From positions 3,000,001-3,032,000 of the forward strand of contig OY759724.1 of assembly GCA_963662715.1 (NCBI GenBank): 32,000 nt of DNA, written 5' to 3'. The notes beneath the pieces were generated by a model. That model saw only the letters and a program-made list of their open reading frames with translations, did not search any database and was not told the origin of the DNA. The DNA is from Candidatus Omnitrophota bacterium (GTDB lineage: Bacteria; Omnitrophota; Gorgyraeia; Zapsychrales; JANLHA01). The translations under genes were made by a program, and so were the position numbers. Of this stretch, positions 10,904 through 26,800 are shown in pieces; position 1 is the stretch's first letter, and each line of letters begins with the position of its first letter.

Positions 10904-10917
10904 GGGGACAGGCCCCC
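10904..10917. repeat. GGGGACAG(G/T)CCCC palindromic motif, copy 1 (variant)
   Basis: GAAAGGGGACAGGCCCCC lies 38 nt after the stop at 10866 and is followed by ATAATAAAC. Confidence 0.5.
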
Positions 10918-11011
10918 ATAATAAACTATGTTATCAGTTTGTACCCTTTTCAATTTCCGTCAACCATCCCACCTTGATTTTCATATTATAAGAGAGTATA
11001 ATCGCAACATC

Positions 11012-11123
11012 ATAAAGAATGTTTTTCTCTGCCCCTACGGATGACCGATGGTACCGAAAAAGGACGGTAATGGAAAATATCGCTAAGGCATTGGAGAAAC
11101 AGGGAGTTGTTACTCTAAAATAA
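11012..11123 (+). repeat. Mini-ORF module copy A (degenerate first ORF, intact second ORF)
   Basis: (I)KNVFLCPYG-TGA at 11012-11044 has no ATG. The conserved core GATGACCGATGGTACCGAAAAAGGACGG follows. The second ORF is MENIAKALEKQGVVTLK (11070-11123). Confidence 0.7.
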
Positions 11124-11230
11124 CGAAAAGATGATCTCATAAATGCCTGGGGGAAAATTACTGCTCAGAATTTGAGACTGCTTGGAATGAAATGCCCAAA
11201 GCAACTTATCAATAAGGATGGCATAAATCA

Positions 11231-12643
11231 ATGGGATCAGAAGACGTGAAATTGTTAGAGAAAGGAAAGGAACTCATGTACATATCTCCTAGGAGTAATA
11301 GACCGGCTGAAAACAGTTCAGGTTTAATGAATAGCTTAGTGATGGGGAACTCATCAAAAGTTGTAGGCTGTTTTCTTACCTTTGTTATGTTGGGGCTTCT
11401 GTGTCTTCCACCACAGCAGATTGCTGAGGCCCGTCAAGTTATGAAAGAAGGAAAATTTACCATTGATATCAACGATGACTTCCAATGTGGCGAAGAAGCC
11501 GAGTTAACGATCACGGTTCCGGACCGCAGATTTTTTAAGGGTGACCCGCGACACATCCGGGTCTTAATCGGGAACGTACGGGGGCCTCTGAGTGAAGAAT
11601 GTGGTCAATATGCCTTTAGAAGTGTCAAAATCATCGGCAAAGAAGGCGACGTCCAGGTTTTTTCAGGGTCTGCCCAAAAAAGTGAAAGTTGGAAGATTGT
11701 CAGTGACAATGCTGATGATCAAGGGGAGCAACATGATGGGCAAGAGCCTGATGTCAGAATCAAATTCCGCCTTCCAAACAGTTCCGCCGGTATTGACTAT
11801 GCAGGAACCTGTCAAAGAAACCCTATTATCCCGTTAAAACCGGTGTATTACAATAATGCGGATGCGGCTTTGAGCAAACCGGCCACAATGAGAGATTATC
11901 GTGTTGTCGCGCCGTTGATTGCTGAACAGTATCTATCAGCGTGCCCCGGCACGGAAACCATTGACTTCTCACTCAACCCCATTCCCGAAGGATATGTCTG
12001 TGTCAGCGGGTTCCTCTGTTATTTGAATTGGTCTGCACAGAATCCAAAGGAAGTCATGACCGCAGAATTTAAAAGAAAACCAAGGCTTAAGGACTACGAT
12101 GATGTTATTCAAGCTTTTGCAGAAGGGAATTTTGATATCCTTCGTGAGTATAAAGAATTCAATCATCTTTTTCATAATGATTTTGCCGAGAGATATACAG
12201 ACATTTGTAGAGACCATGTTGACAGTACGGTCACTTTTGAAATTGAGAGCATTCAAACCCGATACAATTCAGATGGCTTCGTTGAAAGTAAAAACAAGGT
12301 AGGGCCGACGGTCCACATCCATATTGACGAGAATTTTGCAAAGCGATACAAGGCGTTTTACGGTCCTAATAAAGCCTGGGGTGCGCTTTTATTAATGAAC
12401 CGGGTTGTTGATCAGAGGTCTCGCCGTCCCGGATCTGCGGGTATGATCAAAGGTGTGAGCTATTTTATCGATAATTTAAACCAAATTGATCAATTTCTAT
12501 CGAAGGGTTGCACAACGGAAAAAGTGCGCACGGTTTACGATAATATCGACCGTTTTTATCGCCATCAACCACCTGTGAAGGCCGAAAAGGAAGGGGAAAA
12601 AAGGAAGGGGACAGTCCCCGCTAAGGGACAGGGCAACCTTTAG
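11231..12643 (+). CDS. Hypothetical secreted protein (no family recognised)
   Basis: Long ORF. The hydrophobic signal-like segment VVGCFLTFVMLGLLCLPPQQIAEA suggests the real start may be an internal ATG (11276, 11327 or 11342). I recognise no catalytic motif. Confidence 0.55.
   Translation: MGSEDVKLLEKGKELMYISPRSNRPAENSSGLMNSLVMGNSSKVVGCFLTFVMLGLLCLPPQQIAEARQVMKEGKFTIDINDDFQCGEEAELTITVPDRRFFKGDPRHIRVLIGNVRGPLSEECGQYAFRSVKIIGKEGDVQVFSGSAQKSESWKIVSDNADDQGEQHDGQEPDVRIKFRLPNSSAGIDYAGTCQRNPIIPLKPVYYNNADAALSKPATMRDYRVVAPLIAEQYLSACPGTETIDFSLNPIPEGYVCVSGFLCYLNWSAQNPKEVMTAEFKRKPRLKDYDDVIQAFAEGNFDILREYKEFNHLFHNDFAERYTDICRDHVDSTVTFEIESIQTRYNSDGFVESKNKVGPTVHIHIDENFAKRYKAFYGPNKAWGALLLMNRVVDQRSRRPGSAGMIKGVSYFIDNLNQIDQFLSKGCTTEKVRTVYDNIDRFYRHQPPVKAEKEGEKRKGTVPAKGQGNL
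12607..12619. repeat. GGGGACAGTCCCC palindromic motif, copy 2
   Basis: Perfect GGGGAC-A-GTCCCC inside the last 37 nt of the 11231-12643 ORF. A half-copy GGGACAGGGC lies 5 nt downstream. Confidence 0.6.
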
Positions 12644-12666
12644 GCAATGACATCTGGGAGGGATTC

Positions 12667-14028
12667 ATGACGAACACAAAAGGATTCTTCAATAGTTTGG
12701 CCGGCAAACTGGCCGCAAAATTCAAGAAATCGCGCTGTGCCTTTTGCTCAAAGATACTGCCGGAGGAAGGGCTATCGAATCGACTTTTTAAAGAAAATTT
12801 GGTGCGGAAGATGAAGGACAGTTTGGGGGAACCTCAGCGGCCCCCACATGCTATCCAAGAGGGTGCTCCTCAATGGCTGGTGTGTACTTCCTGTTTTGAT
12901 AAGTTTGTCAACACCCAACAGATTTGCGGTGCTTGCCGGCGGCCTGTGCCACCAACGGAAGGGTACGTATTGCCGGCTAAAAAGGTTGTCACCAAAAATT
13001 ATTTCTGGAGGATGTATTTCTCAAATCCCCTTCCGTATGTCCCCGCGACCACCTATCAAGGGGGAGCCATCACAAATTTTGACGCCATTTACCGTTACGT
13101 GGTGGGGCAGCAGGCTAGTTGGCTTATATGCGAAACGTGCTATAAGACATTGGGAAGCCCGTTTGACTCGGCCAGAGCTGATGCCAAAAAGTGGTGGGGG
13201 GCCGGGCGGAAAAGCGATCATGTCAAGGAAGCCGGCCCGGTCCCGGTCGAGGATGCTGTCGAGCCGGCCACAAAGGGATTTTATCTTGTCTACAGGAAGC
13301 CTTCCGTTGGTCTTTGGATAAATGCCTCGTCCAAGCCTAATGAAGCCTTACCCCAAGAGGAGTTTAATGAAATTTGTCCTCTGATCGAAGATCTTGCCAC
13401 TAAAAGCCTCGGCACCGTTCTCGGAAGCGACCCATATTTTTCATTAAGACGTCTGGGTAAACGCGTCGTACCTTACTTGACAAAGGTCATCGATTATCCC
13501 AATTATGAAATAGCAGAAAAAGCTGTTAAACTTTTAGGGGAAGTCGGGGGGAAAGAGGCTATTCCTGTACTTCAAAAAGTTGTGGAAGACTGTAATATTT
13601 GGGAAGTCCGCAAAGCCGCTTTGACCGGCCTTGCACAAATTAAAAAAATAGACGACGAAACTCTCCCCTTGGACACCGAGTGCCCTTATCAACAAATTTC
13701 CGAAGTCTGGACCGCAGTCATTCAGGGCCGAAAGCAGCTCTATACCCCGAACACTATTTATGAATACGGCACGAGAACTATGGAACGTATGCCAAAGCTG
13801 ATGATTGAATCTGAGAAGATGCGGTCACGGATGTGGGCTATGCTGGCCGAACTTATATATATCGGTTTAAACGCTTCTTGGGATAGGGATATTCGGACCA
13901 TAAAACATTGCCCTCAAGCTGGAAAATGTATGGAAGAAGCATTGCGCTGCGACCCCCAAGGGGAAAATGTGGAAATGTGGAATCAATTTCTTAAAGCATA
14001 TACAATCACATGTGGGGACAGTCCTTAA
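12667..14028 (+). CDS. Hypothetical cytoplasmic protein with duplicated Cys4 zinc-ribbon-like units and HEAT-like repeats
   Basis: CAFC...WLVCTSCFDKF and CGAC...WLICETCYKTL form two CxxC...CxxC units with a shared WL(V/I)C.(S/T)C(F/Y).K motif. The central stretch VVPYLTKVIDYPNYEIAEKAVKLLGEVGGKEAIPVLQKVVEDCNIWEVRKAALTGLAQI resembles HEAT/PBS-lyase repeats. Confidence 0.6.
   Translation: MTNTKGFFNSLAGKLAAKFKKSRCAFCSKILPEEGLSNRLFKENLVRKMKDSLGEPQRPPHAIQEGAPQWLVCTSCFDKFVNTQQICGACRRPVPPTEGYVLPAKKVVTKNYFWRMYFSNPLPYVPATTYQGGAITNFDAIYRYVVGQQASWLICETCYKTLGSPFDSARADAKKWWGAGRKSDHVKEAGPVPVEDAVEPATKGFYLVYRKPSVGLWINASSKPNEALPQEEFNEICPLIEDLATKSLGTVLGSDPYFSLRRLGKRVVPYLTKVIDYPNYEIAEKAVKLLGEVGGKEAIPVLQKVVEDCNIWEVRKAALTGLAQIKKIDDETLPLDTECPYQQISEVWTAVIQGRKQLYTPNTIYEYGTRTMERMPKLMIESEKMRSRMWAMLAELIYIGLNASWDRDIRTIKHCPQAGKCMEEALRCDPQGENVEMWNQFLKAYTITCGDSP
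14014..14024. repeat. GGGGACAGTCC motif, copy 3 (truncated right arm)
   Basis: It lies in the last five codons (CGDSP-stop) of the 12667-14028 ORF. ...GAATAATAAAC follows, as for copy 1. Confidence 0.45.
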
Positions 14029-14063
14029 GAATACCTAAGAATAATAAACTTAAAGGAGAATTC

Positions 14064-14729
14064 ATGAAATTCTCATTTGTATTTATTGTAATCATGTTAT
14101 TGAGCTCCAACGTTTATGCCCAAAGTAACCTCGCCTCATCCAAGAAGCCGAATATTATGGAGGTTATTTTGTTTTTGAATGCCAATCAAGCCAATAATGG
14201 CTCTGCCAGTTTTAAAGCAGATCATGATAAAAAAACTTTGGAATATTTCGATCAAGATGGGAGGTTGATAGAGAAATCTTATATCAATGAAAGCAACGAT
14301 ATTGTCACCCAGAAATATGACAAAGAAGGGGGAATTATATCGGAAACAAAAATCACAGAGGAATCCATTTTAGCACAAAATAAGAAGAGGAAAGATGACC
14401 ATAAAAATAAAGTGGTCCCCGGATTGATCGCCAAATTGTCCGTCATGGCTAAAGCCGCAGAGCGTTACGCAAAAGATCATGATGGCCGATTTCCCCAACA
14501 AATGAATGAGCTTGTTGGCGCTCAGCCGCCATACTTAAGTGAATGCTTTTGCGATGACCAAACCCCAACATATCGAATAGTTTGTGACATTAATGAAGCT
14601 GGTTATCACTTTAAGGCCAACGCACTCTGGTCACATCTTGAATCCTATGTAATGGTAAACGGCGAAAAGTTAACGACAGTACCGCCCCAGAGACCAACAT
14701 ACGAGAAGTCTACATCAACGTGCAAATAA
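14064..14729 (+). CDS. Hypothetical secreted protein; the C-terminal half weakly resembles the GspG/pseudopilin globular domain
   Basis: ATG at 14064 lies 5 nt after AAAGGAG. Signal peptide MKFSFVFIVIMLLSSNVYAQS. The segment LIAKLSVMAKAAERYAKDHDGRFPQQMNELVG resembles the pseudopilin pattern a...l..Y..DnG.yP....eLv, but there is no N-terminal prepilin methylation motif. The resemblance is recognition only. Confidence 0.5.
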   Translation: MKFSFVFIVIMLLSSNVYAQSNLASSKKPNIMEVILFLNANQANNGSASFKADHDKKTLEYFDQDGRLIEKSYINESNDIVTQKYDKEGGIISETKITEESILAQNKKRKDDHKNKVVPGLIAKLSVMAKAAERYAKDHDGRFPQQMNELVGAQPPYLSECFCDDQTPTYRIVCDINEAGYHFKANALWSHLESYVMVNGEKLTTVPPQRPTYEKSTSTCK

Positions 14730-14743
14730 ATTTTGAAGGGGAA

Positions 14744-14756
14744 GAGGACAGTCCCC
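14744..14756. repeat. GAGGACAGTCCCC palindromic motif, copy 4
   Basis: GAAGGGGAAGAGGACAGTCCCCAATAA begins 15 nt after the stop at 14729. Confidence 0.55.
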
Positions 14757-14829
14757 AATAAGTTGCGAACCAAGGGAAAAAGATTAAAGAAATTGGTCAT
14801 TAATACTACAAATACAGGACTGCTATTTT

Positions 14830-15783
14830 ATGAGAGCCAAATCACAGGAACTCCTCGATTCATTAGCCGATGAAACTTCCGTTTTTATACAGACCCATGA
14901 CTTTCCGGATCCTGATGCTGTTGCGGCCGCATTCGGACTCCAATATTTTTTGAAAGAAAAAGGAACGGCATCCACCATTCTCTATGAAGGTGAACTCCAA
15001 ACAAATCCGATCGGAAGAATGGTCAAAGATCTTGGTATTGTCATGCAAAAAACGGGTGAGATAAATCTAAAGAAAAAAGACGGCATTATACTTATTGATG
15101 GGTGTAAGGGCAATGAAAATGTAACCAATGATACAGGAAAAGTTCTGGCGGTCATCGATCATCATTTAGGCAAGGAGCCAGCAGACGTTCCGTTTCTCGA
15201 CATCAGGAGTGATTACGGTGCGTCATCAACAATTATTTCTCATTATTTGAAGGAAAGTGGGGTTGTTCTGACACCCTATGTAGCCACAGCTTTATCAATC
15301 GGCATTCATGTCGATACCGGTTCTTTGCGCAGGAGGGTTCATCTCAAAGACATCGAAATGCTTTCCTTTTTGCAAGATAAGAGTGACAACAACTTATTGG
15401 GATCAATATTACGTAATAATGTTTGCCAAGAAGATCTTCATATTTATAAAAAGGCTTTAAAAAATGTCAAAATCAGTGATCGTTTCGCATTTTATTACCA
15501 TCCTGGAGAATGCGCGCAAAATCTTTTGGGCATACTTGCTGATTTCTTTTTGTCTGTAAAAGAAATCAATTTCGTAGTGCTTTGCGCGCAAAGTAACGGC
15601 AAAATCATTTTCTCGGTGCGCAGTGAAAACCCCGAGTGGAATGCGGCGTTTATCATCAAAAGTGTTCTCCGAGGATTGGGTGCCGGAGGAGGACATCAAG
15701 ACATGGCTGGGGGAGCCATCAAAGATCCCTCTTCATTTAATGAGAAAGAGCTTTATGAAAAATTTCTGAACCATATAGATTAA
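14830..15783 (+). CDS. DHH/DHHA1-family phosphoesterase (NrnA-like nanoRNase / pAp or cyclic-dinucleotide phosphodiesterase class)
   Basis: Family motifs appear in order: HDFPDPDAV (DxD), LIDG, VIDHH (DHH), HVDTGS, and the C-terminal GGGHQDMAGG (DHHA1 GGGH). Confidence 0.8.
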   Translation: MRAKSQELLDSLADETSVFIQTHDFPDPDAVAAAFGLQYFLKEKGTASTILYEGELQTNPIGRMVKDLGIVMQKTGEINLKKKDGIILIDGCKGNENVTNDTGKVLAVIDHHLGKEPADVPFLDIRSDYGASSTIISHYLKESGVVLTPYVATALSIGIHVDTGSLRRRVHLKDIEMLSFLQDKSDNNLLGSILRNNVCQEDLHIYKKALKNVKISDRFAFYYHPGECAQNLLGILADFFLSVKEINFVVLCAQSNGKIIFSVRSENPEWNAAFIIKSVLRGLGAGGGHQDMAGGAIKDPSSFNEKELYEKFLNHID

Positions 15784-15794: not shown

Positions 15795-15900
15795 ATGAAA
15801 AAAAATTATTTAAAAATTTACGGCTGACCGATGGTACCGAAAAAGGACGGCAATGAAAAATATCGCCAAAGCATTGGAAAAGCAAGGGATATGTAATTAA
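15795..15900 (+). repeat. Mini-ORF module copy B
   Basis: MKKNYLKIYG-TGA (15795-15827) starts 11 nt after the DHH stop. The conserved core CTGACCGATGGTACCGAAAAAGGACGG follows. The second ORF is MKNIAKALEKQGICN (15853-15900). Confidence 0.8.
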
Positions 15901-15936
15901 AAAAAACTTATAAACTCACATTAACTAGGAATTGAT

Positions 15937-16365
15937 ATGCGACAAAAATTCAACCTCATTACCCTCGGCGTAAAAGACATACAAAAATCCATAAATTTTT
16001 ATGAGAAAGGTCTCGGCTGGAAAAGGTCGCCTGCGAGTCTAGATGATCTTATTCTTTTTCCCTTAGGAGGAATTGTTTTGGCGCTCTATCCGCGGAAGCT
16101 TTTGGCTGATGATATAACCTTAAAAGACTTGCCAACAGGGTTTTCTGCTGTAACTATTTCTTATAATGCAAAGGATGAAAATGAGGTGAATGAGGTTCTC
16201 GGGCAGGTAGAGCAACTTGGAGCAACCATTCTCAAACCCGCTCAGAAAGCATTTTGGGGTGGATACAGCGGATATTTTAAGGATTTGGACGGGCATTTAA
16301 TTGAAGTTGCATATAATCCATTTTGGGAGTTTGATAATAACGACAATCTTAATTTGCCATTATGA
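15937..16365 (+). CDS. VOC-family (glyoxalase / bleomycin-resistance fold) protein
   Basis: 142 aa. The N-terminal LITLGVKDIQKSINFYEKGLGW and C-terminal GYFKDLDGHLIEVAYNP are typical paired beta-alpha-beta-beta-beta VOC signatures. Confidence 0.75.
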   Translation: MRQKFNLITLGVKDIQKSINFYEKGLGWKRSPASLDDLILFPLGGIVLALYPRKLLADDITLKDLPTGFSAVTISYNAKDENEVNEVLGQVEQLGATILKPAQKAFWGGYSGYFKDLDGHLIEVAYNPFWEFDNNDNLNLPL

Positions 16366-16408
16366 AAATTTGTGACGGGATTGCTGCTATAATATAAAGA
16401 AATAAGCT

Positions 16409-17035
16409 ATGGATAAGAAACATCAAGTGGAGAATATTGATATTCTAAAAAAATTTGGAGACTACTACACTGCAAGTGAACGTACATTTATTATGGGCAT
16501 TGATAAAAAATTTACGTCTCATTTTGCTGAACGATTCAAGAATTTTGTCGTTTTAGAAACATGCACTGGGGGAGGATTTACTACCATATCTCTTGCGAGA
16601 ACAGCAAAGCATGTCATTACATTTGAAATTGATCGATCCATACAAGAAGATGCCGCCCAAAATATAAAGAAAGCAGACCTATCCGACAGGGTTACTTTGA
16701 TAAATGGAAATATTCTGAATCAAAATTTAATAGAAAATCTCCCGCCTATAAATAGCGCATTTCTTGATCCTGATTGGGCTGTAACTGGACCAGATCACAT
16801 CTATCGATTCACAAATTCGAATACAAATCCTCCAGCAGATGTATTGCTCAATAAAATTTTTATAATTACTAATAATGTTGCCTTAGTTTTACCCCCGTTT
16901 ATTGATATCAAAGAACTAGAAGGATTACCAGAGCACGAGCTTGAACAACTCTACATGGGGGACTCCTTAGAACTTTATTGTCTTTATTTTGGAAAACTCA
17001 TAAAAACCATTGGTAAAACAACCTTTAGAATATAA
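16409..17035 (+). CDS. Class I SAM-dependent methyltransferase (resembles the cap guanine-N2 / Methyltransf_15 type)
   Basis: Motif I VLETCTGGGFTTISLA, acidic motif II ITFEID, and AFLDPDW, which resembles the (S/D)PPW substrate motif. The subfamily call is tentative. Confidence 0.65.
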   Translation: MDKKHQVENIDILKKFGDYYTASERTFIMGIDKKFTSHFAERFKNFVVLETCTGGGFTTISLARTAKHVITFEIDRSIQEDAAQNIKKADLSDRVTLINGNILNQNLIENLPPINSAFLDPDWAVTGPDHIYRFTNSNTNPPADVLLNKIFIITNNVALVLPPFIDIKELEGLPEHELEQLYMGDSLELYCLYFGKLIKTIGKTTFRI

Positions 17036-17048
17036 TTTAGCGTAAAAC

Positions 17049-17196
17049 ATGAAGAAAATATTTCTAAAAATCTACGGCTGACCGATGGTACCGAAAAAGG
17101 ACGGTCATGGAAAATATTGCCAAGTCATTGGAAAAGCAAGGGATAGAAGCTAAATTGTTGAAATTTAGTGACTCAAAATACTCCTATGAAAATTAG
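17049..17196 (+). repeat. Mini-ORF module copy C (best preserved)
   Basis: MKKIFLKIYG-TGA (17049-17081) starts 13 nt after the preceding stop, followed by the conserved core. The second ORF is MENIAKSLEKQGIEAKLLKFSDSKYSYEN (17107-17196). It overlaps the ATG of the next gene (17186) by 11 nt. Confidence 0.8.
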
Positions 17197-18238
17197 AAAA
17201 ATTAAAGATGAAGACATAAATGCAGTGGTAGAACTATGGTACGAAGTTTCACTTGAAGCACATAGTTTCGTTCCCTCGGAATATTGGAAAAAGAATAAAG
17301 AAGCAATGGCTACGAAATATCTGCCGAATTCAGAAACCTATTTAGCCCTTCAAAAGGATACGATTGTTGGGTTTATTACCATGGTCGATAATTATCTTGC
17401 AGCCATTTTTGTCTCTTCGGATATGCAGGGTCGCGGAATCGGCACAGAATTATTAAATCATATAAAAGATCACAGAAATTTGATTCAATTAAAAGTTTAT
17501 AAAAAGAACTCAAAAAGCGTAAATTTTTACATCAAACAAGGATTTCAATTATTTGCTGAAGAGACGGAAGAAGTAACAGGAGAAATAGAGTGTTTAATGA
17601 AGTGGAAGAAATTGAACATGAAAGATGAAACAAAATTATTCTACGATTTAACTGCAGAAAAAACGGCAGATGAATGGTATCAGAATGATATTCTCCTGCC
17701 AACAATAAAAGAATTCGCGTCCTTACTGCCAGAAGCACCTCGAGTATTGGATTTAGGCTGCGGCCCGGGGCATGAAAGCAAAAGGTTGGCATCCCTCGGA
17801 GCCGACGTAATCGGTATAGATTACAGTAGTGAATGCATTCGTATTGCCAAAGAACGTTGTCATGAATGTGAATTCAAACTCATGGATTTTCGCCATCTTG
17901 ATGGTAGTCTTGGCCGATTCGACGGTGTATTTGCCAGCGGGTCGTTAATTCATATCACTCCGGCTGATCTGTCAGATGTTCTTAAAAACATCGCAGCCAT
18001 ATTAAAACAAGACGGTTTTCTTATAATGATTCTTCAGGATGGAGAGGGCATCCATGAAAAATACAGCAATCTTGAAGTCAGTGGCAAAATCTTAAGACGA
18101 CCGGTTTATTGCTATGCAAAAGATCATTTGATTAAGATTTCTTCGAGATCTAATCTCGAGTTTATAAAAGAAGGGCTTTTGGATAAAAACCTCTATGCGG
18201 ATAATTGGAGAAACCATATATTCAAGCGGATAAAATAA
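17186..18238 (+). CDS. GNAT acetyltransferase fused to a class I SAM methyltransferase
   Basis: The N-terminal half has the GNAT motif A region IFVSSDMQGRGIGTELL. The C-terminal half has methyltransferase motif I VLDLGCGPGHESKRLA and GIDYS. I chose ATG 17186 (MKIRKIKDEDINAV...) over the GTG at 17168 in the ORF track. Confidence 0.75.
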   Translation: MKIRKIKDEDINAVVELWYEVSLEAHSFVPSEYWKKNKEAMATKYLPNSETYLALQKDTIVGFITMVDNYLAAIFVSSDMQGRGIGTELLNHIKDHRNLIQLKVYKKNSKSVNFYIKQGFQLFAEETEEVTGEIECLMKWKKLNMKDETKLFYDLTAEKTADEWYQNDILLPTIKEFASLLPEAPRVLDLGCGPGHESKRLASLGADVIGIDYSSECIRIAKERCHECEFKLMDFRHLDGSLGRFDGVFASGSLIHITPADLSDVLKNIAAILKQDGFLIMILQDGEGIHEKYSNLEVSGKILRRPVYCYAKDHLIKISSRSNLEFIKEGLLDKNLYADNWRNHIFKRIK

Positions 18239-18268
18239 TTATAAAGTAATTTAAAAAAAGGAAGAAAG

Positions 18269-18559
18269 ATGCCTGTTTATTTGGTTGTTGAAACTAAAGA
18301 GATTCTGAATAAAGCTACGTATAGCGAGTATATTCAGAAAGTGCCGCCAACTGTCCAAGCATTCGGCGGTGAGTATTTGGCCCGCGGAGGACAAGTCAAG
18401 GTCATCTCAGGGGATTGGAGCCCCGAACGCCTTATTGTTGTTAAATTTGGCTCTATGGATACCTTAAACTCCTGGCTCAATTCTCCAGAATATTCTGCAA
18501 TTGCCTCTTTGCGTGAACAATCCGCTAAGACAAACGCTATCGTGGTGGAAGGCGTCTAG
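18269..18559 (+). CDS. DUF1330-family protein
   Basis: 96 aa with the family pattern Y..Y......V..FGGEYLARGG.......W.PERLIVVKF.S.....W..SPEY......R. An SD (AGGAAG) lies upstream. Confidence 0.75.
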   Translation: MPVYLVVETKEILNKATYSEYIQKVPPTVQAFGGEYLARGGQVKVISGDWSPERLIVVKFGSMDTLNSWLNSPEYSAIASLREQSAKTNAIVVEGV

Positions 18560-18563
18560 AAAT

Positions 18564-18711
18564 ATGACAAAAAAGGTTTATCTTAAAGTATACGTCTGAC
18601 CGATGGTGCCTAAAAAGGACGGCAATGGAAAATATTGCTAAGGTGCTGAAAAAACAGGGAATAAAGATAAAATCGCTGAATTTCAACGACTCCAAAAATA
18701 AGGGGAAATAA
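18564..18711 (+). repeat. Mini-ORF module copy D
   Basis: MTKKVYLKVYV-TGA (18564-18599) starts 4 nt after the DUF1330 stop. The core is CTGACCGATGGTGCCTAAAAAGGACGG. The second ORF is MENIAKVLKKQGIKIKSLNFNDSKNKGK (18625-18711). Its TAA overlaps the ATG of the next gene (TAATG). Confidence 0.8.
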
Positions 18712-19475
18712 TGAAGAAACAATGGTATGAATCATTATTCGAAGATTACGCTCACAAATACGATAAGGAATGTTTTGTTCAAGGCACGATCGGCGAATGC
18801 GATTTTATTGAAGATGAGATAAACCACGTAAAATCCTTAAAGATTATCGATATCGGTTGTGGGACAGGAAGGCATTCTATTGAACTTACTAAAAGGGGAT
18901 ACAACGTGACCGGGGTTGACCTTTCTGATAATCAAATTAAAAGGGCAAGGGAAAAGGCGCAAGAGGCAGGGGTGGCCATCGACTTCCAAACAAAAGATGC
19001 CCGTAATCTTCCGTTTGAAGGTGAATTTGATCTGGCTATTATGTTGTGTGAAGGCGGATTCTCTCTTATGGAAACAGATGAGATGAACTTTGAAATCCTC
19101 AAGAATGCAACAAAAGCGTTGAAAGATAAAGGCAAATTCATTTTTACCACATTAAATGGGTTATTCCCGCTGTTTCATTCTGTCAAGGAATTTTATGAGT
19201 CGGCGCAGAAAGAGGGGCAATCCCAATGTAAGGATTGTTCCTTTGATCTGATGACATTCCGCGATCACAATACCGTTGTCTTTGAAGATGATGCGGGAAA
19301 TAAAAAAGAATTAAAATGCCATGAACGCTATTATGTGCCCAGTGAGATAACGTGGCTTTTAAAGACGCTGGGGTTTAAGAAAATCGGCATCTTTGGCGCA
19401 AAGCTCGGGGCATACTCAAGAAACGACAAATTGACAATCGACGATTTTGAAATGCTTGTTGTCGCGGAAAAATGA
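18711..19475 (+). CDS. Class I SAM-dependent methyltransferase
   Basis: Motif I IIDIGCGTGRHSIELT, then VTGVDLS and the post-I acidic residue. 254 aa. Confidence 0.8.
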   Translation: MKKQWYESLFEDYAHKYDKECFVQGTIGECDFIEDEINHVKSLKIIDIGCGTGRHSIELTKRGYNVTGVDLSDNQIKRAREKAQEAGVAIDFQTKDARNLPFEGEFDLAIMLCEGGFSLMETDEMNFEILKNATKALKDKGKFIFTTLNGLFPLFHSVKEFYESAQKEGQSQCKDCSFDLMTFRDHNTVVFEDDAGNKKELKCHERYYVPSEITWLLKTLGFKKIGIFGAKLGAYSRNDKLTIDDFEMLVVAEK

Positions 19476-19574
19476 TAGAAGATACGAAAAAAATATACCT
19501 TCGAACATTTGGTTGACCGTACGTATCACTACGGTGAAATATTTTTGAGGCTGATATGCGCTTTAAGTGATTGA
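19472..19574 (+). repeat. Mini-ORF module copy F (divergent downstream half)
   Basis: MIEDTKKIYLRTFG-TGA (19472-19516). Its ATG overlaps the methyltransferase stop (ATGA). The +1 frame after the stop reads DRTYHYGEIFLRLICALSD (19515-19574). Confidence 0.65.
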
Positions 19575-19705: not shown

Positions 19706-20383
19706 ATGAAAATATTATTAGTTGAAGACGATAAGCAAACAGCTCAATTTATACTTAATGGATTAACCCAACAGGGTTATGCCGTTCAGCATGCCGAAAA
19801 TGGTTTGGATGGATTACATTTCGCCGAAGTTGAAAAGTATGATGTGGCTATAGTCGACATAATGATGCCAGAGCTTGACGGTTTAAGCATGATTGAAAAA
19901 CTCCGAAATAAGAAAATTATGCTGCCAGTCATAATATTGAGCGCAAAAAGCGACGTTTCCGATAGGGTCAAAGGACTTCAAAAAGGCGGCGATGATTATT
20001 TAGTAAAACCTTTTTCCTTCAGTGAATTATTGGCCAGAATCCAAGCTATCCTTCGCAGATCTTTTTCCAGGCCAGGCATTACTTCATTTCAAATTGGAGA
20101 TTTGAAATTGGATTCAATCAAACGAAAAGTCTATCGGCAAGATAAAGAAATCTTCCTTCCCGTTGGCGAATTCATATTACTTGAATATCTTATGCAAAAT
20201 GCGGGAAGAGTAGTATCAAAGACTATGATTATTGAAAATGTTTGGGATTATAATTTTGATCCAGAAACTAATGTCATCGAAGCACGCATGAGCCGTTTAA
20301 GAAACAAAATTGATAAACCATTTAAGAAAAAACTCCTTCATACCGTCAGAGGATTTGGATATGTTCTGGAAGAAAAAGAATAG
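19706..20383 (+). CDS. OmpR-family response regulator
   Basis: The receiver domain has MKILLVEDD and VAIVDIMMPELDG. The C-terminal winged-helix domain has RMSRLRNKID....LLHTVRGFGYVLE. Confidence 0.9.
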   Translation: MKILLVEDDKQTAQFILNGLTQQGYAVQHAENGLDGLHFAEVEKYDVAIVDIMMPELDGLSMIEKLRNKKIMLPVIILSAKSDVSDRVKGLQKGGDDYLVKPFSFSELLARIQAILRRSFSRPGITSFQIGDLKLDSIKRKVYRQDKEIFLPVGEFILLEYLMQNAGRVVSKTMIIENVWDYNFDPETNVIEARMSRLRNKIDKPFKKKLLHTVRGFGYVLEEKE

Positions 20384-21788
20384 CATTTTCCATTCCGTTG
20401 TTTTTCGTCTTTCCCTATGGTATGCCCTCTTTTTTTCAATAGCGGCCATTCTTGTCTTTTTTATAAGTAAATCGATCCTATCTTCTGATCCCACCAAAAT
20501 TATTGATTATGAATTGCTGCATGATTCTCAAGAGTACAAAAATGAATTCTTGAGAAGAAATATAGAAGAAATGATTGAAGAACTTCATAAAGAAGCTTCT
20601 GAAGAAGGATTGGGGAGAGTTTTTTATAGGCTTTTATCCTCTGATTATACAGAAATTAGCTCTTCCAATTTAAATCAATGGAATCATTTAGACTTAAATA
20701 AACTTAAAAATTTAGCCAAATTGTCTTCTCAAAAAGATGTTGTTTTTGAAACACTGACCTACGAAAACAATCAACTCAATACCAGAGTTATCAGCAGAAA
20801 AATCGGAAATGGCAACTATATTTTACAAATCGGATTTATCATTCAGAACAACCAAGCCCTCATGGAAAGTTTTAGATATTGGATCTTCTGGATTTTTATT
20901 GCCCTTTTAGTTTGCGGGATCATTTTGGGCTGGTGGATAATGCAAAAAACTATGTCCGGGGTAAAAAGAGTTGCAGAAACAGCTGTGAAAATAGGGAAAG
21001 ACGGATTAGTCCATAGAGTTGAAACGAAAAATGAAGGGACAGAGATAGATAATCTTGCTGAAGCATTTAATAATATGCTAAATCGGATAGAAAAATTAAT
21101 GTCGGAATTAACAGATATAACTAATAACGTAGCTCATGATCTAAGAACACCAATAACTCGCATACGGGGTATAGCAGAAACATCATTGAAAAATAATGCT
21201 AATTCTCATTCAAACGATGAGAGCTACTCAATTATTATCGAAGAGTGTGACCGGCTTGTTTATCTTGTTAACACCATATTAGAAATTTCCGAAATTCAGG
21301 CTGGAATAAAAAAGTACGATCAAACAAACATTGAAATAATTGATCTTGTTGAAAGAGGTTGTGATATTTTTCAGCCTGTTGCAGAAGATAAAAATATAAA
21401 ACTAAAATTTGAAGGACAAAAAACGCCGATTTATATTCAAGGAAACATGAATAATTTGCAAAGGGCAGTTTCTAACCTATTAGATAATGCCATAAAATTC
21501 ACTCAAGAGAACGGAGAAATTTTAGTCAGGGTAACTAAATCTGGGCACCAAGCGTTAATTTCGTTTAAAGACACGGGCATTGGCATTAAACAGGAAAATA
21601 TAAAACGTATTTTTGAAAAATTTTTCAGAGTACAATCAAGCCGGTCAACCCCAGGAAATGGATTGGGCTTAAGTTGGGCGCAATCCATTATTTCCACAAT
21701 GAATGGAAAAATTACAGTGCAAAGCGAACTTGGCACAGGAAGCACCTTCATCATCCACATTCCTCTTTATTCCACAACATTACAATAA
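20361..21788 (+). CDS. Sensor histidine kinase (two TM segments, HAMP, HisKA, HATPase_c)
   Basis: H-box NNVAHDLRTPIT, N-box LLDNAIKFT, G1 FKDTGIGI, G2 GNGLGLS. ATG 20361 (MFWKKKNSIF...) overlaps the regulator's 3' end by 23 nt. The ORF track starts earlier, at 20310. Confidence 0.85.
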   Translation: MFWKKKNSIFHSVVFRLSLWYALFFSIAAILVFFISKSILSSDPTKIIDYELLHDSQEYKNEFLRRNIEEMIEELHKEASEEGLGRVFYRLLSSDYTEISSSNLNQWNHLDLNKLKNLAKLSSQKDVVFETLTYENNQLNTRVISRKIGNGNYILQIGFIIQNNQALMESFRYWIFWIFIALLVCGIILGWWIMQKTMSGVKRVAETAVKIGKDGLVHRVETKNEGTEIDNLAEAFNNMLNRIEKLMSELTDITNNVAHDLRTPITRIRGIAETSLKNNANSHSNDESYSIIIEECDRLVYLVNTILEISEIQAGIKKYDQTNIEIIDLVERGCDIFQPVAEDKNIKLKFEGQKTPIYIQGNMNNLQRAVSNLLDNAIKFTQENGEILVRVTKSGHQALISFKDTGIGIKQENIKRIFEKFFRVQSSRSTPGNGLGLSWAQSIISTMNGKITVQSELGTGSTFIIHIPLYSTTLQ

Positions 21789-21873
21789 TGTAATCTACCT
21801 ATCAGTTTTTCATAATTTTATAATGATATACTTTTCGCATTAAAAAGAAACGTAAGATGTGTAATGACCCTAG

Positions 21874-22665
21874 TTAAGCAAGGATTTTTTTGTGTAGATC
21901 GAGTTCTTTGTTAATCCATCTTTTGTAAAACTCTTCAGGCGTAGCGAAGAATAATGCCTGATGAGGGAAATCGGTGTTGTAATCGTTGATCCAACGCTTG
22001 AAGTCATCTTGAAGATCAAATGGGTTGTCCCATTCATTGATCCAAATGAAATCTTCTTTGATTCTGCGGATGACGCGTTCGGTGTCAGCATTGCCTTTGG
22101 GGTTGGACCAGGTTGAGAAGATCTGCTTGATGCCGGCCAGTGAACAATTAAGCCTGAAGCGCCCGCTGGTGGGCTGACAGCCATTGTCCGAGATCAGGTG
22201 CAGGTCATGATTCAGTGTGTCTTTGATGCCGTTTGGGAATCGGTTGTTGATGGCCATTTCCAGGGCATCCAGCCAGTCATCAGTCTTTGACTGGATGTTG
22301 AGGCTATAGCCGATAATTTCTTTGGTATACCAGTCTAGGACGATGGTCAGATAGAACCAGCCCCAGGTCGCCAGTTTGATTTTTGTCATATCGATACCCC
22401 AGAATTGATTGGGGTGAGAAGCTCGTGGTTTCCGGCGGAGGTTGCCACGCTTGGCCTTCAAGCGATCGTTGGGTTGAACCGTTAATTGATTTTCTTGCAT
22501 GAGGCGTTGGACACAATTTTTGCCAATTTTGTAATGTTTACGGTTGTTTAAATAGGCCCAGACTGAACGGTATCCCCAGAGGGGATGTTGCTTTTTAATT
22601 TGTCGGATTTTGACTAAATGTTTTTGGTCTTGTTCGATACGCTTTAGAGAACGGCGTCTTTTCAT
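21874..22665 (-). CDS. IS3-family transposase OrfB (DDE / rve integrase core)
   Basis: WGIDMTKIKL (first D), LISDNGCQPTS (second D) and NPKGNADTERVIRRIKEDF (E) in the typical order. It lies in the -1 frame relative to orfA. Confidence 0.85.
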   Translation of the reverse strand: MKRRRSLKRIEQDQKHLVKIRQIKKQHPLWGYRSVWAYLNNRKHYKIGKNCVQRLMQENQLTVQPNDRLKAKRGNLRRKPRASHPNQFWGIDMTKIKLATWGWFYLTIVLDWYTKEIIGYSLNIQSKTDDWLDALEMAINNRFPNGIKDTLNHDLHLISDNGCQPTSGRFRLNCSLAGIKQIFSTWSNPKGNADTERVIRRIKEDFIWINEWDNPFDLQDDFKRWINDYNTDFPHQALFFATPEEFYKRWINKELDLHKKILA

Positions 22666-22967
22666 AACTCGTACTCGTTTTTTTTTAGTTCAACGGTCAA
22701 GTCGCCGATGATGCGTTTGAGTTTGGCGTTTTCTTTTTCAAGACGTTGCTCTTTCTGGGACTGTTGTTTGATGTCAAAGGCCATATGGCATTCTTTGAGG
22801 AACTGGTCGCGCCATTTGTAATATTGGGTTTGGCCAATTTGGTATTTGTTACAAAGTTTACTGATGTCGATTTTCCCGCTGAGGCCTTCAAGCACGATTT
22901 GGGTCTTTTGTTGGCTGGTCCATTGGCGTTTTTTCATGGGAATTGGGCTCCTTTCCTTGGAACTCAA
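22662..22967 (-). CDS. IS3-family transposase OrfA (HTH plus leucine-zipper-like coil)
   Basis: RQWTSQQKTQIVLEGLSGKIDISKLCNKYQIGQTQYYKWRDQF is an IS3/IS911-type HTH. A C-terminal coiled coil ends at the slippery A run. ATG 22937 is an alternative start. Confidence 0.8.
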   Translation of the reverse strand: MSSKERSPIPMKKRQWTSQQKTQIVLEGLSGKIDISKLCNKYQIGQTQYYKWRDQFLKECHMAFDIKQQSQKEQRLEKENAKLKRIIGDLTVELKKNEYEL

Positions 22968-23036
22968 TTCTACACCATTTGTTTAAATTTGTTAACTAGG
23001 GTCACTATAGATGTTTCTAAAATGAAAGGAGTATTT

Positions 23037-23828
23037 ATGTTTGGTAAAAAACTGTATGTAATCCTTTTTGCGTTTATGAGTTTTGTTTTTACGCAAAAAT
23101 GCGTCGAAGCATCTGAACTCTTCGACAATGTTTTAAGTTCAGTAACAGAGGAGTTGAAAAAAGTAGAAGATGGAGCAGTGGGGATTGGAGTTATGTATGA
23201 AACTTCACCATATAAAGGTGCTGATGATGAAGTTATGCCCGTGCCAATGGTTATGGGAGAATACAAAAATTTCTTCATTGAAGGGACCGAATTTGGTTAC
23301 AAAATTATTAAGAATGACGATTGGGAGTTATCTGCAATCCTGGGCCCTCGTATGGATGGGTATGAAGCAAGCGATAGTACAGATTTAGCAGGAATGAAGG
23401 AACGCAAGAATTCCTTTGATGGTGGTGCAAAATTAGAATGGGATGCAAAGATTTTTGAATTAGAGGTGTCTGTTTTGGCTGATTTGGCAAACAACCATCA
23501 AGGACAGGAAGTTGAATTTGAACTTTCAAAAGAGTTTTTGGGCGGGTTTTTAACGCCTTATGTAGGCGTGACATGGCTCAGCAAAGATCTGGCAAATTAC
23601 TACTACGGAGTCAGGTCATCAGAAGCACGGTCAGGACGACCTGCTTACACCGCAGATAGCTCTTTTAATCCCGCTGCTGGGGTGCGCATAGTTTATCCAA
23701 TTAATGAAAAATGGGCGATTTTTAGTGATTTTGAATATGAAATATTGGATTCCAATATTAAAGATTCACCAATTGTCGATCAAGATGGATTGTTTTCATC
23801 AATGTTTGGAGTAGTTTACCAATTCTGA
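23037..23828 (+). CDS. MipA/OmpV-family outer-membrane protein
   Basis: ATG at 23037 lies 5 nt after AAAGGAG. Signal peptide MFGKKLYVILFAFMSFVFTQKCVEA. The family pattern is SPYKGADDEVMPVPMVMGEYKNFFIEG..FGYK ... GPRMDGYEASDS..LAGM.ERK.SFDGG, with a terminal aromatic residue (YQF). The 22746 start in the ORF track runs back into the IS element. Confidence 0.75.
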   Translation: MFGKKLYVILFAFMSFVFTQKCVEASELFDNVLSSVTEELKKVEDGAVGIGVMYETSPYKGADDEVMPVPMVMGEYKNFFIEGTEFGYKIIKNDDWELSAILGPRMDGYEASDSTDLAGMKERKNSFDGGAKLEWDAKIFELEVSVLADLANNHQGQEVEFELSKEFLGGFLTPYVGVTWLSKDLANYYYGVRSSEARSGRPAYTADSSFNPAAGVRIVYPINEKWAIFSDFEYEILDSNIKDSPIVDQDGLFSSMFGVVYQF

Positions 23829-23835
23829 TTACAAA

Positions 23836-26800
23836 ATGATGAAAACATTCTTTGAATTCTTTGCAAGAAGAACCCTCCTTGCTAATTTAATATCGATTAT
23901 GATTGTTCTTCTGGGGATAGGTTCTCTGCTCACGATTAAACGTGACAGCTATCCTCATGTTGATTTCGGAGAAGTTTTAATCGAAACATCCTACCCTGGA
24001 GCTTCACCCGAGGATGTTGAAATCAACATTACGAATAAGATCGAAAACGAGTTAAAAAGCGTTACGGGGATAAAAAATTTCACTTCCGTATCAATAGAAG
24101 GCGTCTCGCTCATTACTGTTATCATTGATCCGACAGTCCGGGACATGAAAAAAGTGAAAAATGATGTCCGGGATGCCGTCAACCGTATCAAAGATTGGCC
24201 CCGAGAGATTGAAAATTTTCCTTTTATTGAAGAGTCAAATTCTGCAACGTTTCCAATTATGGAAGTCGCCCTTTCAGGAGAGATGCCTTACAGGGATCTT
24301 TATCAAACAGCTAAACTACTAAAGAAAAAGCTGGAAAATCTTCCGGAAGTTTGCCGAATCAATGAATATGGATATCGAGCGAGAGAAATTCATATCGAAC
24401 TTGCCCCGGAAAAAATCAAAGATTATCAAATCCCAATAAATTGTATTAAGACAGCCATCCAAAAAAGAAACATCCGCTCCACGGCGGGAAATTCAGAATC
24501 ATTAACTGATAATAAAAATATCACCATTTCATCTCAATTCAGCAGCCCTTCTGAAGTTGGCGATGTAATCATTCGGAACTCATATGATGGCCCTCTTATC
24601 AGATTGCATGACCTTGCTGTTATTGAAGATGATTTTGAAAAAGCACAGACCCTCTCGCGTGTTAACGGGATATCTTCCATTTCCTTTGAAATAATAAAAG
24701 CTGAGTCTGCCGATATTTTAAGAGCCGTAGAATCTGTCAAAAAAGTCATCAAAGAATCAAAGGAGATTACGTCCGCAGGACTAAAGATATCTATTGCCAA
24801 TGATTCCTCTCATTATGTCAGAAATCGTCTTAATATTGTACAAAGAAACGCCGTCTTGGGCCTTATCTTTGTCATTTTACTACTGCGGATCTTTATGAAT
24901 GCAGAAACATCTTTTTGGATTGCCGCAGGAATTCCTATATCTTTGTTAGGGACGATTTATTTGATGCCTTTTTTTAATGTTTTCTTGGATAGTCTCTCCT
25001 TGAGCGCCATGATTATGGTAATCGGTATCATCGTCGATGATGCTATTATTATCAGTGAAAATATTTATAAACATAGGGAGCAGGGCAGTCCTCCGCTCAA
25101 GGCCACAATAAGCGGCATTCAGGAAATTTTTTGGCCTGTCCTCACAACCGTCCTGACAACCTTTTTCGCCTTTGTTCCCATGTTTTTTATGGAAGGTCTT
25201 TTTGGGAAATTTGTCACGGTTATTCCCTTGGTGATAACGTTGGCGTTATTCATATCCCTGATTGAATCATTTATAGCGCTTCCAGCGCATCTTCAACATG
25301 GATTGCGAAAACATAGGGGAGCACGACATTCAAAAAACAAATTACAATATTTAAAAGCAGTATATTTCTCGCGGATGAAACAAATATTGAAATTCCGGTA
25401 TATGGTTGTTTTTATTTTTATTATTGTCTTTGGAGTAACCCTACATTTCGGATTGACCCGCCTCAAGACGATACTTTTTCCGGATAAAATGGCAGAGGAG
25501 ATTTCAATCACGGCACAACTTCCCCAAGGATCCAGCCTGCAACACACATCTCAGAAATTCTCGGAGATTGAGCAAATTATAGCCCGCTTACCTAAAACCG
25601 AACTGAGTTCTTTTGTTACGCGAATCGGTGAAGACGAGTTTTCTGATATCAAAATTAAAAATCATGGATACATGATATTGTTTCTAACGCCTTTTAGCGA
25701 ACGGAAACGCAGCGCTCAGGAAATTGTTGAAGAGCTTCGAAAATCCACACGCCAATTGAAAGGCTTTGAAAATATTTCTTATTTCATAGAAACCGGCGGC
25801 CCTCCCGATGGAAAACCCGTTGAAATCTGCATCGTGGGAAGCAATGATACGATACGAAAAAAACTCGCCGATGATGTTGTTTCCTTTTTAAATACACTTA
25901 AAGGAGTCAAAGATATTACCCGTGACGATAAAATCGAACAAGGCCTGATTGAACTGGACATAGATTACCTTCAACTGGAAAGGTTCGGTTTAACTGTTGA
26001 AAATATTGCATCAAACGCCCGCATCGCCTATGAAGGAGAAGTTGTCACCAAAGTCAGATATGGGGATGAGGACGTTAATTTCAGGCTTTTGTTCAATAAA
26101 AACTCCGATGACAATCCTGATCGACTCGAAAACCTCCTGCTGGCAAATAACCAAAATAAACTTATTGAGTTAAACAAGGTCGCCAAATTTAAACACACAA
26201 AAGGTCAAAGCCTCTATCAGCATCATAACGGTCAAAGGGCAGTCAAAATCGAAGCAGACGTTTTTCAAGACATCATGACTCCTGATGACGTGATGGATTT
26301 AGTAGAGAATAAATTCAATCTTGACAGAGACTATCCCGGGACAAAATTTATAAAAGAAGGCGAGATCTTTGAAACAGAGCAATCTTTCAAAAGCCTGTTC
26401 CTGACCATGATCATCGCATTGACCGGGATTTATTTCCTTTTAATTGTCTTGTTCAATTCTTTAACACAGCCTCTTATTGTCATGGCAGCCATCCCTTTTG
26501 GTATTTTCGGTGTCATTCTTGCTTTTTTACTTCACAAAGAACCTTTAAGCTTTATCGCGTTGCTTGGCGCCATCGGGTTAACGGGTGTTGTTGTCAATGA
26601 TTCCCTCGTTCTTGTCAGCCATTTAAATCAAATCAAAAAAAGTTCACCTGCAGGACTTTCCATCATCGACATTGTTGCCCAAGGATCTTCCGACCGGTTA
26701 AGGGCAATCATTATGACAACAGTTACTACCGTAGGAGGACTTATTCCGCTTGCGTACGGATGGGGAGGATCCGACCCCTTTATGGCTCCCATGGCATTGT

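Follow-up and report, generated by a model that had tools for sequence, protein, structure and literature searches.

The window and its repeated modules

The stretch analysed here, called the window throughout, comprises 32,000 nucleotides (nt) from a Candidatus Omnitrophota bacterium (GenBank assembly GCA_963662715.1, contig OY759724.1, positions 3,000,001 to 3,032,000 of the forward strand; positions given below are counted from the first letter of the window). Six copies of a short module (A–F), each made of two miniature open reading frames (ORF1 and ORF2) or their diverged equivalents, lie between groups of accessory genes, in the order A, unit 1, B, unit 2, C, unit 3, D, unit 4, F, unit 5, E, followed by FUR and further genes to the window end. 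The modules and their counterparts in related genomes are described below, where it is argued that they derive from the 5' end of miaB, the gene for tRNA-i6A37 methylthiotransferase (UPF0004 N-terminal domain), and probably mark the joints of a gene array.

All six modules are on the forward strand. Module A (11012–11123) has a degenerate left arm ending in NVFLCPYG, with no ATG for ORF1, a TGA at 11042–11044, a 25-nt spacer and ORF2 at 11070–11123 (MENIAKALEKQGVVTLK, then stop). Module B (15795–15900) consists of ORF1 (15795–15827, MKKNYLKIYG, TGA at 15825), the core and ORF2 (15853–15900, MKNIAKALEKQGICN, then stop). Module C (17049–17196) consists of ORF1 (17049–17081, MKKIFLKIYG, TGA at 17079), the core and ORF2 (17107–17196), which shares 11 nt (17186–17196) with the next gene, the ATG of which is at 17186; module D (18564–18711) of ORF1 (18564–18599, MTKKVYLKVYV, TGA at 18597), a core with two substitutions and ORF2 (18625–18711), the stop of which overlaps the ATG of a methyltransferase gene (TAATG, 18709–18713). 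Module F (19472–19574) has its left arm, MIEDTKKIYLRTFG, at 19472–19513, overlapping the stop of the same methyltransferase gene as ATGA; a TGA at 19514; a hairpin and T-run at 19516–19535; and an ORF2 equivalent without ATG at 19542–19574. Module E (28847–28955) has ORF1 at 28847–28894 (MNKQDTITIFLRTYG, TGA at 28892) and an ORF2 equivalent at 28917–28955 (MILKVLSMMYEE, then stop). The peptides are direct translations. The repeat had first been noticed from the letters alone (hereafter the sequence-only reading), and its six copies, coordinates, peptides and overlaps were recovered by pattern scan, repeat search, and reading and translation, the ATGA of F and the overlaps of C and D being seen again on direct reading. 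Two details required correction: ORF1 of D, given as ending in Y-G, ends in Y-V, and copies E and F, treated as consisting of ORF1 only, both have a diverged ORF2 equivalent at the same 25-nt spacing (MILKVLSMMYEE in E; FLRLICALSD in F).

The core, CTGACCGATGGTACCGAAAAAGGACGG (27 nt), occurs at four sites with at most two mismatches (starts 11041, 15824, 17078 and 18596) and at none in 100 shuffles. An independent repeat search returned the same four copies as a 127-nt family and added copy E through a 31-nt family. TGA-CCG is invariant in 6/6 window copies. Among A–D, identity is 24–27/28 over a 28-nt core, 50–80% over the left arms and 72–90% over the right arms. ORF2 in the window reads MENIAKALEKQGIE, with AAGGA 5 nt upstream of its ATG in the window-type core; over the first 13 ORF2 codons of A–D, the variable columns fall at codon positions 1/2/3 as 5/1/9, a moderate third-position bias. 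A hidden Markov model (HMM) of the family matched module A (E = 3.8e-17), module E (E = 9e-13) and also B, C and D.

The genes between the modules form five cargo units, listed on the forward strand. Unit 1 (11231–15783) encodes a 470-amino acid (aa) unknown protein, a HEAT-repeat protein, a 239-aa unknown protein and a DHH/DHHA1 phosphoesterase; unit 2 (15937–17035) a glyoxalase-family protein (15937–16365) and a 208-aa methyltransferase (16409–17035); unit 3 (17186–18559) a GNAT-methyltransferase fusion and a DUF1330 protein (18269–18559); unit 4 (18711–19475) a 254-aa class I S-adenosylmethionine (SAM) methyltransferase; and unit 5 (19706–28803, between F and E) a response regulator, a histidine kinase, an IS3-family element (minus strand), MipA, an RND-OEP fusion pump and a DUF7670 protein. 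The stretch 17186–18238 is a single ORF that joins GNAT acetyltransferase and class I methyltransferase domains, which corrects the sequence-only reading. G+C content is 50–55% over type IV pilus/type II secretion system genes (1–10 kb) and 31–47% from about 10.3 kb to the end; the array starts at this drop, in a large low-GC accessory region, with copy A 145 nt downstream of a redoxin gene. The best promoter-like site of the region, TTGATT-17-TATAAT (10974–11002, forward strand), lies just upstream of copy A and is a possible transcription start for the array; it was recognised by agreement with the consensus alone, and such sites are no more frequent in the region than expected by chance.

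Relatives of the unit 4 methyltransferase

The 254-aa methyltransferase of unit 4 is unusually conserved, with more than 120 homologs at 85–91% amino-acid identity, the named ones nearly all in Candidatus Omnitrophota metagenome-assembled genomes; a single Hadarchaeaceae bin and a single Proteobacteria bin also appear among the homolog clusters. The contigs that carry ten of these homologs gave 28 loci (L001–L028, many of them near-duplicate contigs), amounting to 339 kb with the window. In relatives, the gene is directly or closely upstream of miaB-miaA-hflX and repeatedly linked also to TrmO and DsrE (L003, L006, L022, L028), which suggests that the methyltransferase acts in tRNA modification. 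No module lies next to it in L003, L009–L016, L017–L021 and L023–L027; the gene is thus not generally module-flanked, and the module is not simply a methyltransferase leader.

Modules as relics of the miaB 5' end

Compared in register with miaB, each module has the features of a broken paralogous copy of the 5' end of that gene, of about the first 30 codons. ORF1 corresponds to the miaB start and codons 1–10, with the beta-strand (V/I)(F/Y)(I/L)(K/R)T(F/Y)G; this N-terminal motif is seen in all left arms, with I or V for Thr in B, C and D. In a table of 20 in-register sequences, one peptide is common to the left arms of the modules and to four intact miaB starts, and third codon positions vary freely (4 codons used for Thr, 4 for Gly, 6 for Arg and 6 for Leu), and the TGA or TGG of the modules falls exactly on the Cys codon of GCQMN, the first iron-sulfur Cys of miaB. 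The codon at that position is TGA in 6/6 window copies, TGA or TGG in the modules of relatives, and TGC or TGT in intact miaB; since the Cys codon is replaced, a module is a relic and not a functional gene.

Past this codon, alignment with MAFFT opens one 7-nt gap in intact miaB relative to every module, and the distance from TGA/TGG to ORF2 is 25 nt in 13/13 complete frameshifted modules (five genomes) against 18 nt in intact miaB. An ATG stands at +25 in 11 of the 13. ORF2 is the miaB alpha-1 helix after the Cys, in the +1 frame following the 7-nt gain and read from the new ATG, and it resembles what we take to be the Pfam consensus of the helix that follows (sEimaglLekaGye). Tandem heptamers were observed at the former Cys codon, perfect in module ii of L028 (TGGCCGA-TGGCCGA, 5494–5507) and as TGGCCGG-TGGCAGG in module L006a (7923–7936) and in L017 (10164–10177). 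The 7-nt gain may be read as such a tandem heptamer, which may have arisen by slippage or be an insertion footprint.

The intact miaB genes of the fetched loci start with MKVFVKTYGCQMNERDSE (L006), MKEDKKKVFIKNFGCQMNEADSE (L022) and MSKKVFLRTFGCQMNERDSE (L028), or contain TVFIKTFGCQMNERDSE in the corresponding part (L003). In L022 (CP070655.1, a 1.14-Mb contig), an 88%-identical methyltransferase is followed by an intact miaB, the ATG of which overlaps the methyltransferase stop as ATGA; this miaB begins MKEDKKKVFIKNFGCQMN, and window copy F, with the same ATGA overlap, begins MIEDTKKIYLRTFG-TGA. When MIEDTKKIYLRTFG is aligned against MKEDKKKVFIKNFG of the L022 miaB, nucleotide identity is 36/40 and 29/40 before the Cys codon and 6/28 after it, an abrupt loss at the Cys codon; the F left arm is orthologous to the intact miaB start of L022. 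A DNA HMM built from modules only and run over the 339 kb finds all four distinct intact miaB 5' ends (E = 4.5e-4, 0.36, 0.41 and 0.68), with one apparently unrelated match (E = 0.85) up to the cut-off of E = 1.

Descent from miaB also bears on the codon-type substitutions in ORF1, which the sequence-only reading had taken as a sign of translation. The pattern is real, with Leu encoded by ctc, tta, cta, ctt, ttg and ctt and the basic residue by aaa, aga or cga; it is more simply explained because ORF1 is, or recently was, a real MiaB N-terminus, and the same third-position variety is present in intact miaB.

A stop codon at a fixed place could alternatively be a recoding signal, the TGA being read as selenocysteine, by readthrough or through a frameshift, so that ORF1 and ORF2 would make one small thioredoxin-fold-like protein. 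TGA-C is invariant in the six copies, both core substitutions of D are synonymous in the ORF1 frame read through TGA, and the fused peptide has a beta-alpha-beta pattern with weak NlpA/UPF0004 matches. We nevertheless find this hardly credible: relatives have TGG at the codon in question and the parent gene has TGC/TGT, the frame beyond it is not conserved, there is no hairpin resembling a selenocysteine insertion sequence (SECIS), TGA is the ordinary stop of 8/26 long window ORFs, and the fused peptide is without homolog among 5.8 billion proteins (E ≤ 10). A prfB-type +1 frameshift and a T4 gene-60-like bypass were rejected on similar grounds (the frames do not fit; no SECIS; TGG or TGC in relatives). 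A fragment of a thioredoxin/ArsC/Grx or of a periplasmic binding protein was also dropped, the Pfam/NCBIfam matches of ORF1, ORF2 and fused variants being weak and inconsistent (NlpA, E = 0.016–0.06; Cdd1 helix-hairpin-helix; Hpr; YycF).

Module arrays in related Omnitrophota

Modules of the same build occur in several of the 28 loci. L004a and L006a read MAKQ(V/I)FIRTFG-W-(T/P)VAGL and then MTRLAEAILGSKQ, the ORF2 stop overlapping the methyltransferase ATG (ATGA); a further copy, L004b, comes directly after a GIY-YIG gene. In L017–L020, MLRKVYIHTFG-W-PVAGL with two stop codons, then MRSLAEAVVGE with one, lie between C_GCAxxG-family and Transpeptidase-family genes, ORF1 starting 4 nt past the preceding stop and the ORF2 stop being 6 nt from the next ATG (L017). 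Of the two copies in L001, one is partial, lies at the contig end and overlaps the stop of a hydrolase gene as ATGA; the other comes after a radical SAM gene, has a truncated left arm and continues into ORF2, a hairpin and a Y1_Tnp gene. The contig of GCA_028715965.1 breaks off within a module (L001 11048–11080), which would be expected of a multi-copy repeat that interrupts short-read assemblies.

Three loci contain arrays. L006 reads module, methyltransferase, TrmO, GIY-YIG, miaB. L022 reads relic 1, spermine-synthase-like gene, module, methyltransferase, intact miaB, TPR/SPOR gene, miaA, hflX; its relic 1 (6790–6942) is a 50-codon ORF containing LRVLLRTFGCQMNDRDSEALLGLFLEG, with the Cys codon intact and the helix in frame, upstream of the 947-aa spermine-synthase-like gene. 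It is apparently a young relic of the miaB start and means that not all relics have the lesion of TGA/TGG plus 7 nt. L028 reads methyltransferase, Y1_Tnp pseudogene, relic i, cation ATPase, module ii, Y1_Tnp, AbiEi/NTP_transf_8 (AbiE toxin-antitoxin genes), Y1_Tnp pseudogene, module iii, a 283-aa ORF, intact miaB, miaA, hflX. In all three the last copy is an intact miaB. The general pattern is one of stacked cargo blocks separated by relics of the miaB start, with the working miaB last.

The modules have mosaic arms. Relic i and module iii of L028 are identical over about 95 nt of left flank, into which the 3' end of a Y1_Tnp pseudogene falls, and their sequences part immediately after TTCGGnTG. 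In its right arm, relic i matches the miaB of its own genome at 26/28 positions. Between L006a and L017, which have different cargo, the core agrees at 25/28 against about 55–65% for the arms, the same pattern as in A–D of the window. Left and right arms assort independently, with the breakpoint at the Cys codon, and the best-conserved part lies just after the breakpoint.

The same comparisons bear on the possibility that the modules are inert pseudogene debris, 5' fragments scattered by segmental duplication and gene conversion around miaB, with no role in mobility or expression. Decay is visible in the degenerate A, in the G-to-V change of D and in the missing ORF2 start of F; relic i of L028 resembles a simple partial duplicate that the resident miaB has converted in part (26/28); and A–D are mutual closest relatives within the window. 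Debris would not account for the same module architecture between unrelated cargo genes in different genomes, for a core conserved above the arms in two independent comparisons (the window; L006a and L017), for a +25 ATG kept in 11/13 modules despite arms only about 55–65% identical, or for placement that is always precise, directly past a stop codon and before a start codon. We therefore regard it as quite unlikely.

Genes for possible mobility functions adjoin some of the modules. Genes for small GIY-YIG nucleases lie immediately ahead of miaB starts or relics in L003 (8865–9146), L004 (4980–5273) and L006 (9296–9574), and a GIY-YIG copy in L017 (155–472) precedes a TMEM175 gene. Y1_Tnp (IS200/RAYT-like) genes or pseudogenes adjoin modules in L028 (2229–2611, 5597–6199 and 7995–8286) and L001 (7469–7981). 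The order in L001 and L028 is right arm, ORF2, GC-rich hairpin, Y1_Tnp, and in L028 the Y1_Tnp pseudogenes run into left arms. No integrase adjoins any module in the window and the 28 loci, only IS3 rve, Y1_Tnp or GIY-YIG genes.

Possible translation through the modules

A secondary role of the mini-ORFs, the coupling of translation into the cargo genes, is plausible. Ribosomes loading at the miaB start or arriving from the preceding gene would terminate and start again, first on ORF2 and next on the cargo. Overlap of the ORF2 stop with the next start is seen in C (11 nt), D (TAATG), L004a/L006a (ATGA) and module iii of L028, and in TGG-type modules ORF1 stops 4–7 nt upstream of the ORF2 ATG. 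The conserved +25 ATG, the third-position bias, the AAGGA, the ORF1-stop spacing and the position of the ORF2 stop at the cargo start together suggest that the right arm may be kept as a translation coupler. Neither E nor F has a coupled gene downstream, the ORF2 ATG is missing from F, and ORF1 of B and C is without a Shine-Dalgarno sequence.

Taken further, such evidence could mean that the module is a dedicated translated regulatory leader, sensing a signal or chaining translation, which spread before accessory genes and resembles miaB through distant origin only. Five genomes retain the ORF2 ATG and the 25-nt spacing, though the spacer sequence differs; ORF2 varies with the bias noted above (5/1/9); its stop overlaps or abuts the next start not only in the four cases just listed but also in L017; and in most copies ORF1 begins 0–13 nt past the stop before it. 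Fold analysis gave no conserved alternative RNA structure, E and F stand apart as already described, and the conservation of ORF1 is equally present in real miaB genes. A leader alone explains neither the intact miaB at the array ends of relatives nor the mosaic arms that break at the Cys codon, and we think it unlikely. The sequence-only reading had placed an att-like junction beside a translated leader; of the two, the junction of serially acquired cassettes with gene-fragment arms has held, the fragment being the miaB 5' end and the arrays of relatives ending in intact miaB, and the leader is retained as a plausible secondary role only.

A model of insertion at miaB

Weighing these observations, we consider it probable that the modules are junctions of cassette blocks inserted serially at the miaB 5' end; the homology, the array architecture and the breakpoint are read directly from the sequences, and from them we infer the mechanism of insertion. 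A block would have the form right arm, cargo, left arm, and would insert at the Cys codon of the resident miaB. Insertion would strand the previous miaB start upstream, fused to the right arm of the newcomer, and this fusion would be the module; the tail of the newcomer, its own left arm, would become the new miaB start and so regenerate the gene. Since a block so built would bring its right arm first and its miaB start last, the two arms would assort independently. Left arms that had served as miaB starts would carry a MiaB-like peptide with free synonymous change, with no selection on a mini-peptide needed, and insertion at the Cys codon would place a stop or Trp always at the Cys position.

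Insertion would be site-specific, in an integron-like or IS200/IS605-like manner, and the junctions of relatives offer a Y1 HUH transposase and a small GIY-YIG nuclease as candidate enzymes. No GIY-YIG, Y1_Tnp, TrmO or DsrE homolog is present in the 32-kb window. Homologous recombination between modules would be an alternative route by which units move and multiply, and could account for A–D being mutual closest relatives.

Several points weigh against insertion at miaB as the source of the modules. At the protein level, frame-corrected module peptides match Pfam PF00919 (UPF0004) weakly (E = 0.06–0.17, in some with the stop replaced by Cys), compared with E = 4.7e-21 for a true MiaB N-terminus, and a PDB profile search returned no MiaB or RimO; with profiles so weak, the claim of homology was rested on DNA continuity, the motif and genomic context. 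The left arms of B, C and D, with I or V for a well-conserved Thr and in D also V for Gly, may never have been working MiaB starts. A–D are closer to each other than to modules elsewhere and may have multiplied by duplication or homologous recombination within the lineage, not from different donors. No circular or empty-site forms were observed. Within the 32-kb window there is no intact miaB and no recombinase, and the end of the array in miaB is not seen there; the window array may continue beyond 32 kb.

A bolder form of the model is possible, though we hold it to be doubtful as a whole: an undescribed Omnitrophota cassette platform anchored in the miaB start, in which insertion at the first Cys codon would be site-specific and of a non-integron kind, a Y1 HUH or GIY-YIG enzyme would act in trans, the blocks would regenerate miaB, the hybrid junction would serve as a two-mini-ORF coupler, and the six modules of the window would be non-autonomous.

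Comparison with known systems

Genomic islands and prophages integrate at the 5' end of dusA, replace it and leave a remnant 5' end, and the MiaB-like rimO is listed as a mobile-element target in Polaromonas (Farrugia et al. 2015, PMC4482086). As in dusA islands, the target here is the 5' end of a tRNA-modification gene; the insert would supply a new 5' end, by which the gene stays intact, and the remnant would come to lie at the far side of the insert. Both a remnant 5' end and an intact target with a new 5' end are present in L006, L022 and L028, and the 32-kb window has no miaB. Unlike in dusA islands, the modules have no adjoining DusA-type tyrosine integrase, nor any integrase; the inserts are of 1–6 compact co-oriented genes, against islands of 30–50 kb; many inserts are stacked, which gives an array of remnants; and the remnants share a lesion (Cys codon to TGA/TGG, plus 7 nt, plus a new ATG).

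Integrons invite comparison for their coupling of translation into cassettes through ORF-11, ORF-17 and ORF-18 in attI1 and short ORFs in attC (review PMC8876359). Both systems have co-oriented, mostly promoterless cargo and a repeated hybrid junction, with an ORF of 10–18 codons across the crossover, the stop of which comes from the incoming partner; the role suggested for it is to lead ribosomes into the cargo by termination-reinitiation. Were the window itself an integron cassette array, with the modules as attC sites, its small co-oriented promoterless-looking cargo of typical cassette kinds (glyoxalase, GNAT, methyltransferases, DUF1330) and the repeats between genes would fit. The modules have neither the R/L core boxes nor the hairpin: no RYYYAAC/GTTRRRY core site occurs on either strand in 6/6 copies; a long imperfect hairpin is absent from both DNA strands, the minimum free energy of single-strand DNA being –6.5 to –13.8 kcal/mol (z, +0.1 to –2.3); and pairing is not conserved (consensus fold –7.25 kcal/mol, one pair with a compensatory change). 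Pfam scans of the 28 largest window ORFs gave no IntI, the sole integrase-like gene being the IS3 rve transposase. We judge attC identity extremely improbable. The junction here also differs from that of integrons in coming from the start of a protein-coding gene, and the array in being anchored in a housekeeping gene, which it must regenerate. The sequence-only reading had recognised no named repeat, riboswitch or attC class in the module, and the Rfam, fold and core-site tests uphold it. Nor is the module a REP or MITE element. Rfam gave 0 matches at gathering score in the 32-kb window; exact-pattern scans of genome, metagenome and viral contig collections with the 27-nt core and a degenerate ORF2 pattern also gave 0 matches, such patterns missing the modules of relatives, which are too diverged.

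With IS200/IS605 (Y1 HUH) and RAYT/repetitive extragenic palindromic (REP) elements, the modules share the order of right arm, ORF2, GC-rich hairpin and Y1_Tnp gene in L001/L002 and L028, and would share orientation-specific insertion at a short fixed sequence with no target duplication. Unlike in IS200/IS605, the window has no Y1_Tnp gene or remnant, and in other lineages a small GIY-YIG gene takes its place; to our knowledge, IS200/IS605 elements have not been described as restoring a target gene with their right end. Control by leader peptides or upstream ORFs of the erm, cat or tna type resembles the modules in its short ORFs immediately upstream of, and overlapping, the methyltransferase start; it differs in that no alternative hairpins sequester a Shine-Dalgarno sequence or form a terminator, that the same module stands before unrelated genes and that the peptide is a gene fragment. 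None of the dusA-island, integron and IS200/IS605 families fits on its defining features, the window having no integrase, attC or Y1 gene.

Other features of the window

Beyond its TAA, the ORF2 frame of copy A (11125–11248) reads RKDDLINAWGKITAQNLRLLGMKCPKQLINKDGINQWDQKT to a stop, with a weak helix-hairpin-helix (Cdd1) match (E = 0.07); this stretch may be a fragment of cargo that once followed copy A. A GC-rich palindrome, GGGGACAG(T/G)CCCC, lies at 10904–10917, 12607–12619, about 14013–14023 and 14745–14757, at the 3' ends of the redoxin gene and three unit 1 genes; these palindromes may be REP-like elements or terminators, and similar GC-rich hairpins follow ORF2 in L001 and L028, adjoining Y1_Tnp genes. 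The IS3-family element of unit 5 (21854–23015, minus strand, between the histidine kinase and MipA genes) has orfA at 22662–22967, rve orfB at 21874–22665 and 24-nt inverted repeats at its ends. The fusion pump (23836–28398) is one 1520-aa ORF with an AcrB-type RND transporter (residues 5–1013) and a C-terminal OEP outer-membrane-factor domain, an unusual fusion.

Meaning of the arrays

The arrays are best read as the product of genes accumulating at the 5' end of a conserved gene that is regenerated each time; full-text searches on Omnitrophota gene cassettes and on miaB as an integration site brought up nothing relevant. The sequence of a miaB-like start, TGA/TGG, 25 nt and ATG provides a key by which cassette arrays can be sought in metagenomes, where module arrays cause assembly breaks. 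On the reading preferred here, of blocks inserted serially at miaB, the modules are scars that record, in order of time, how genes were acquired at one housekeeping gene. If insertion is site-specific, the arrays would represent a system of cassette accretion that falls outside the integron paradigm and belongs to a largely uncultured, poorly known phylum; in it, incoming DNA would repair the target gene that it interrupts, and the junction would be built for expression of the cargo.

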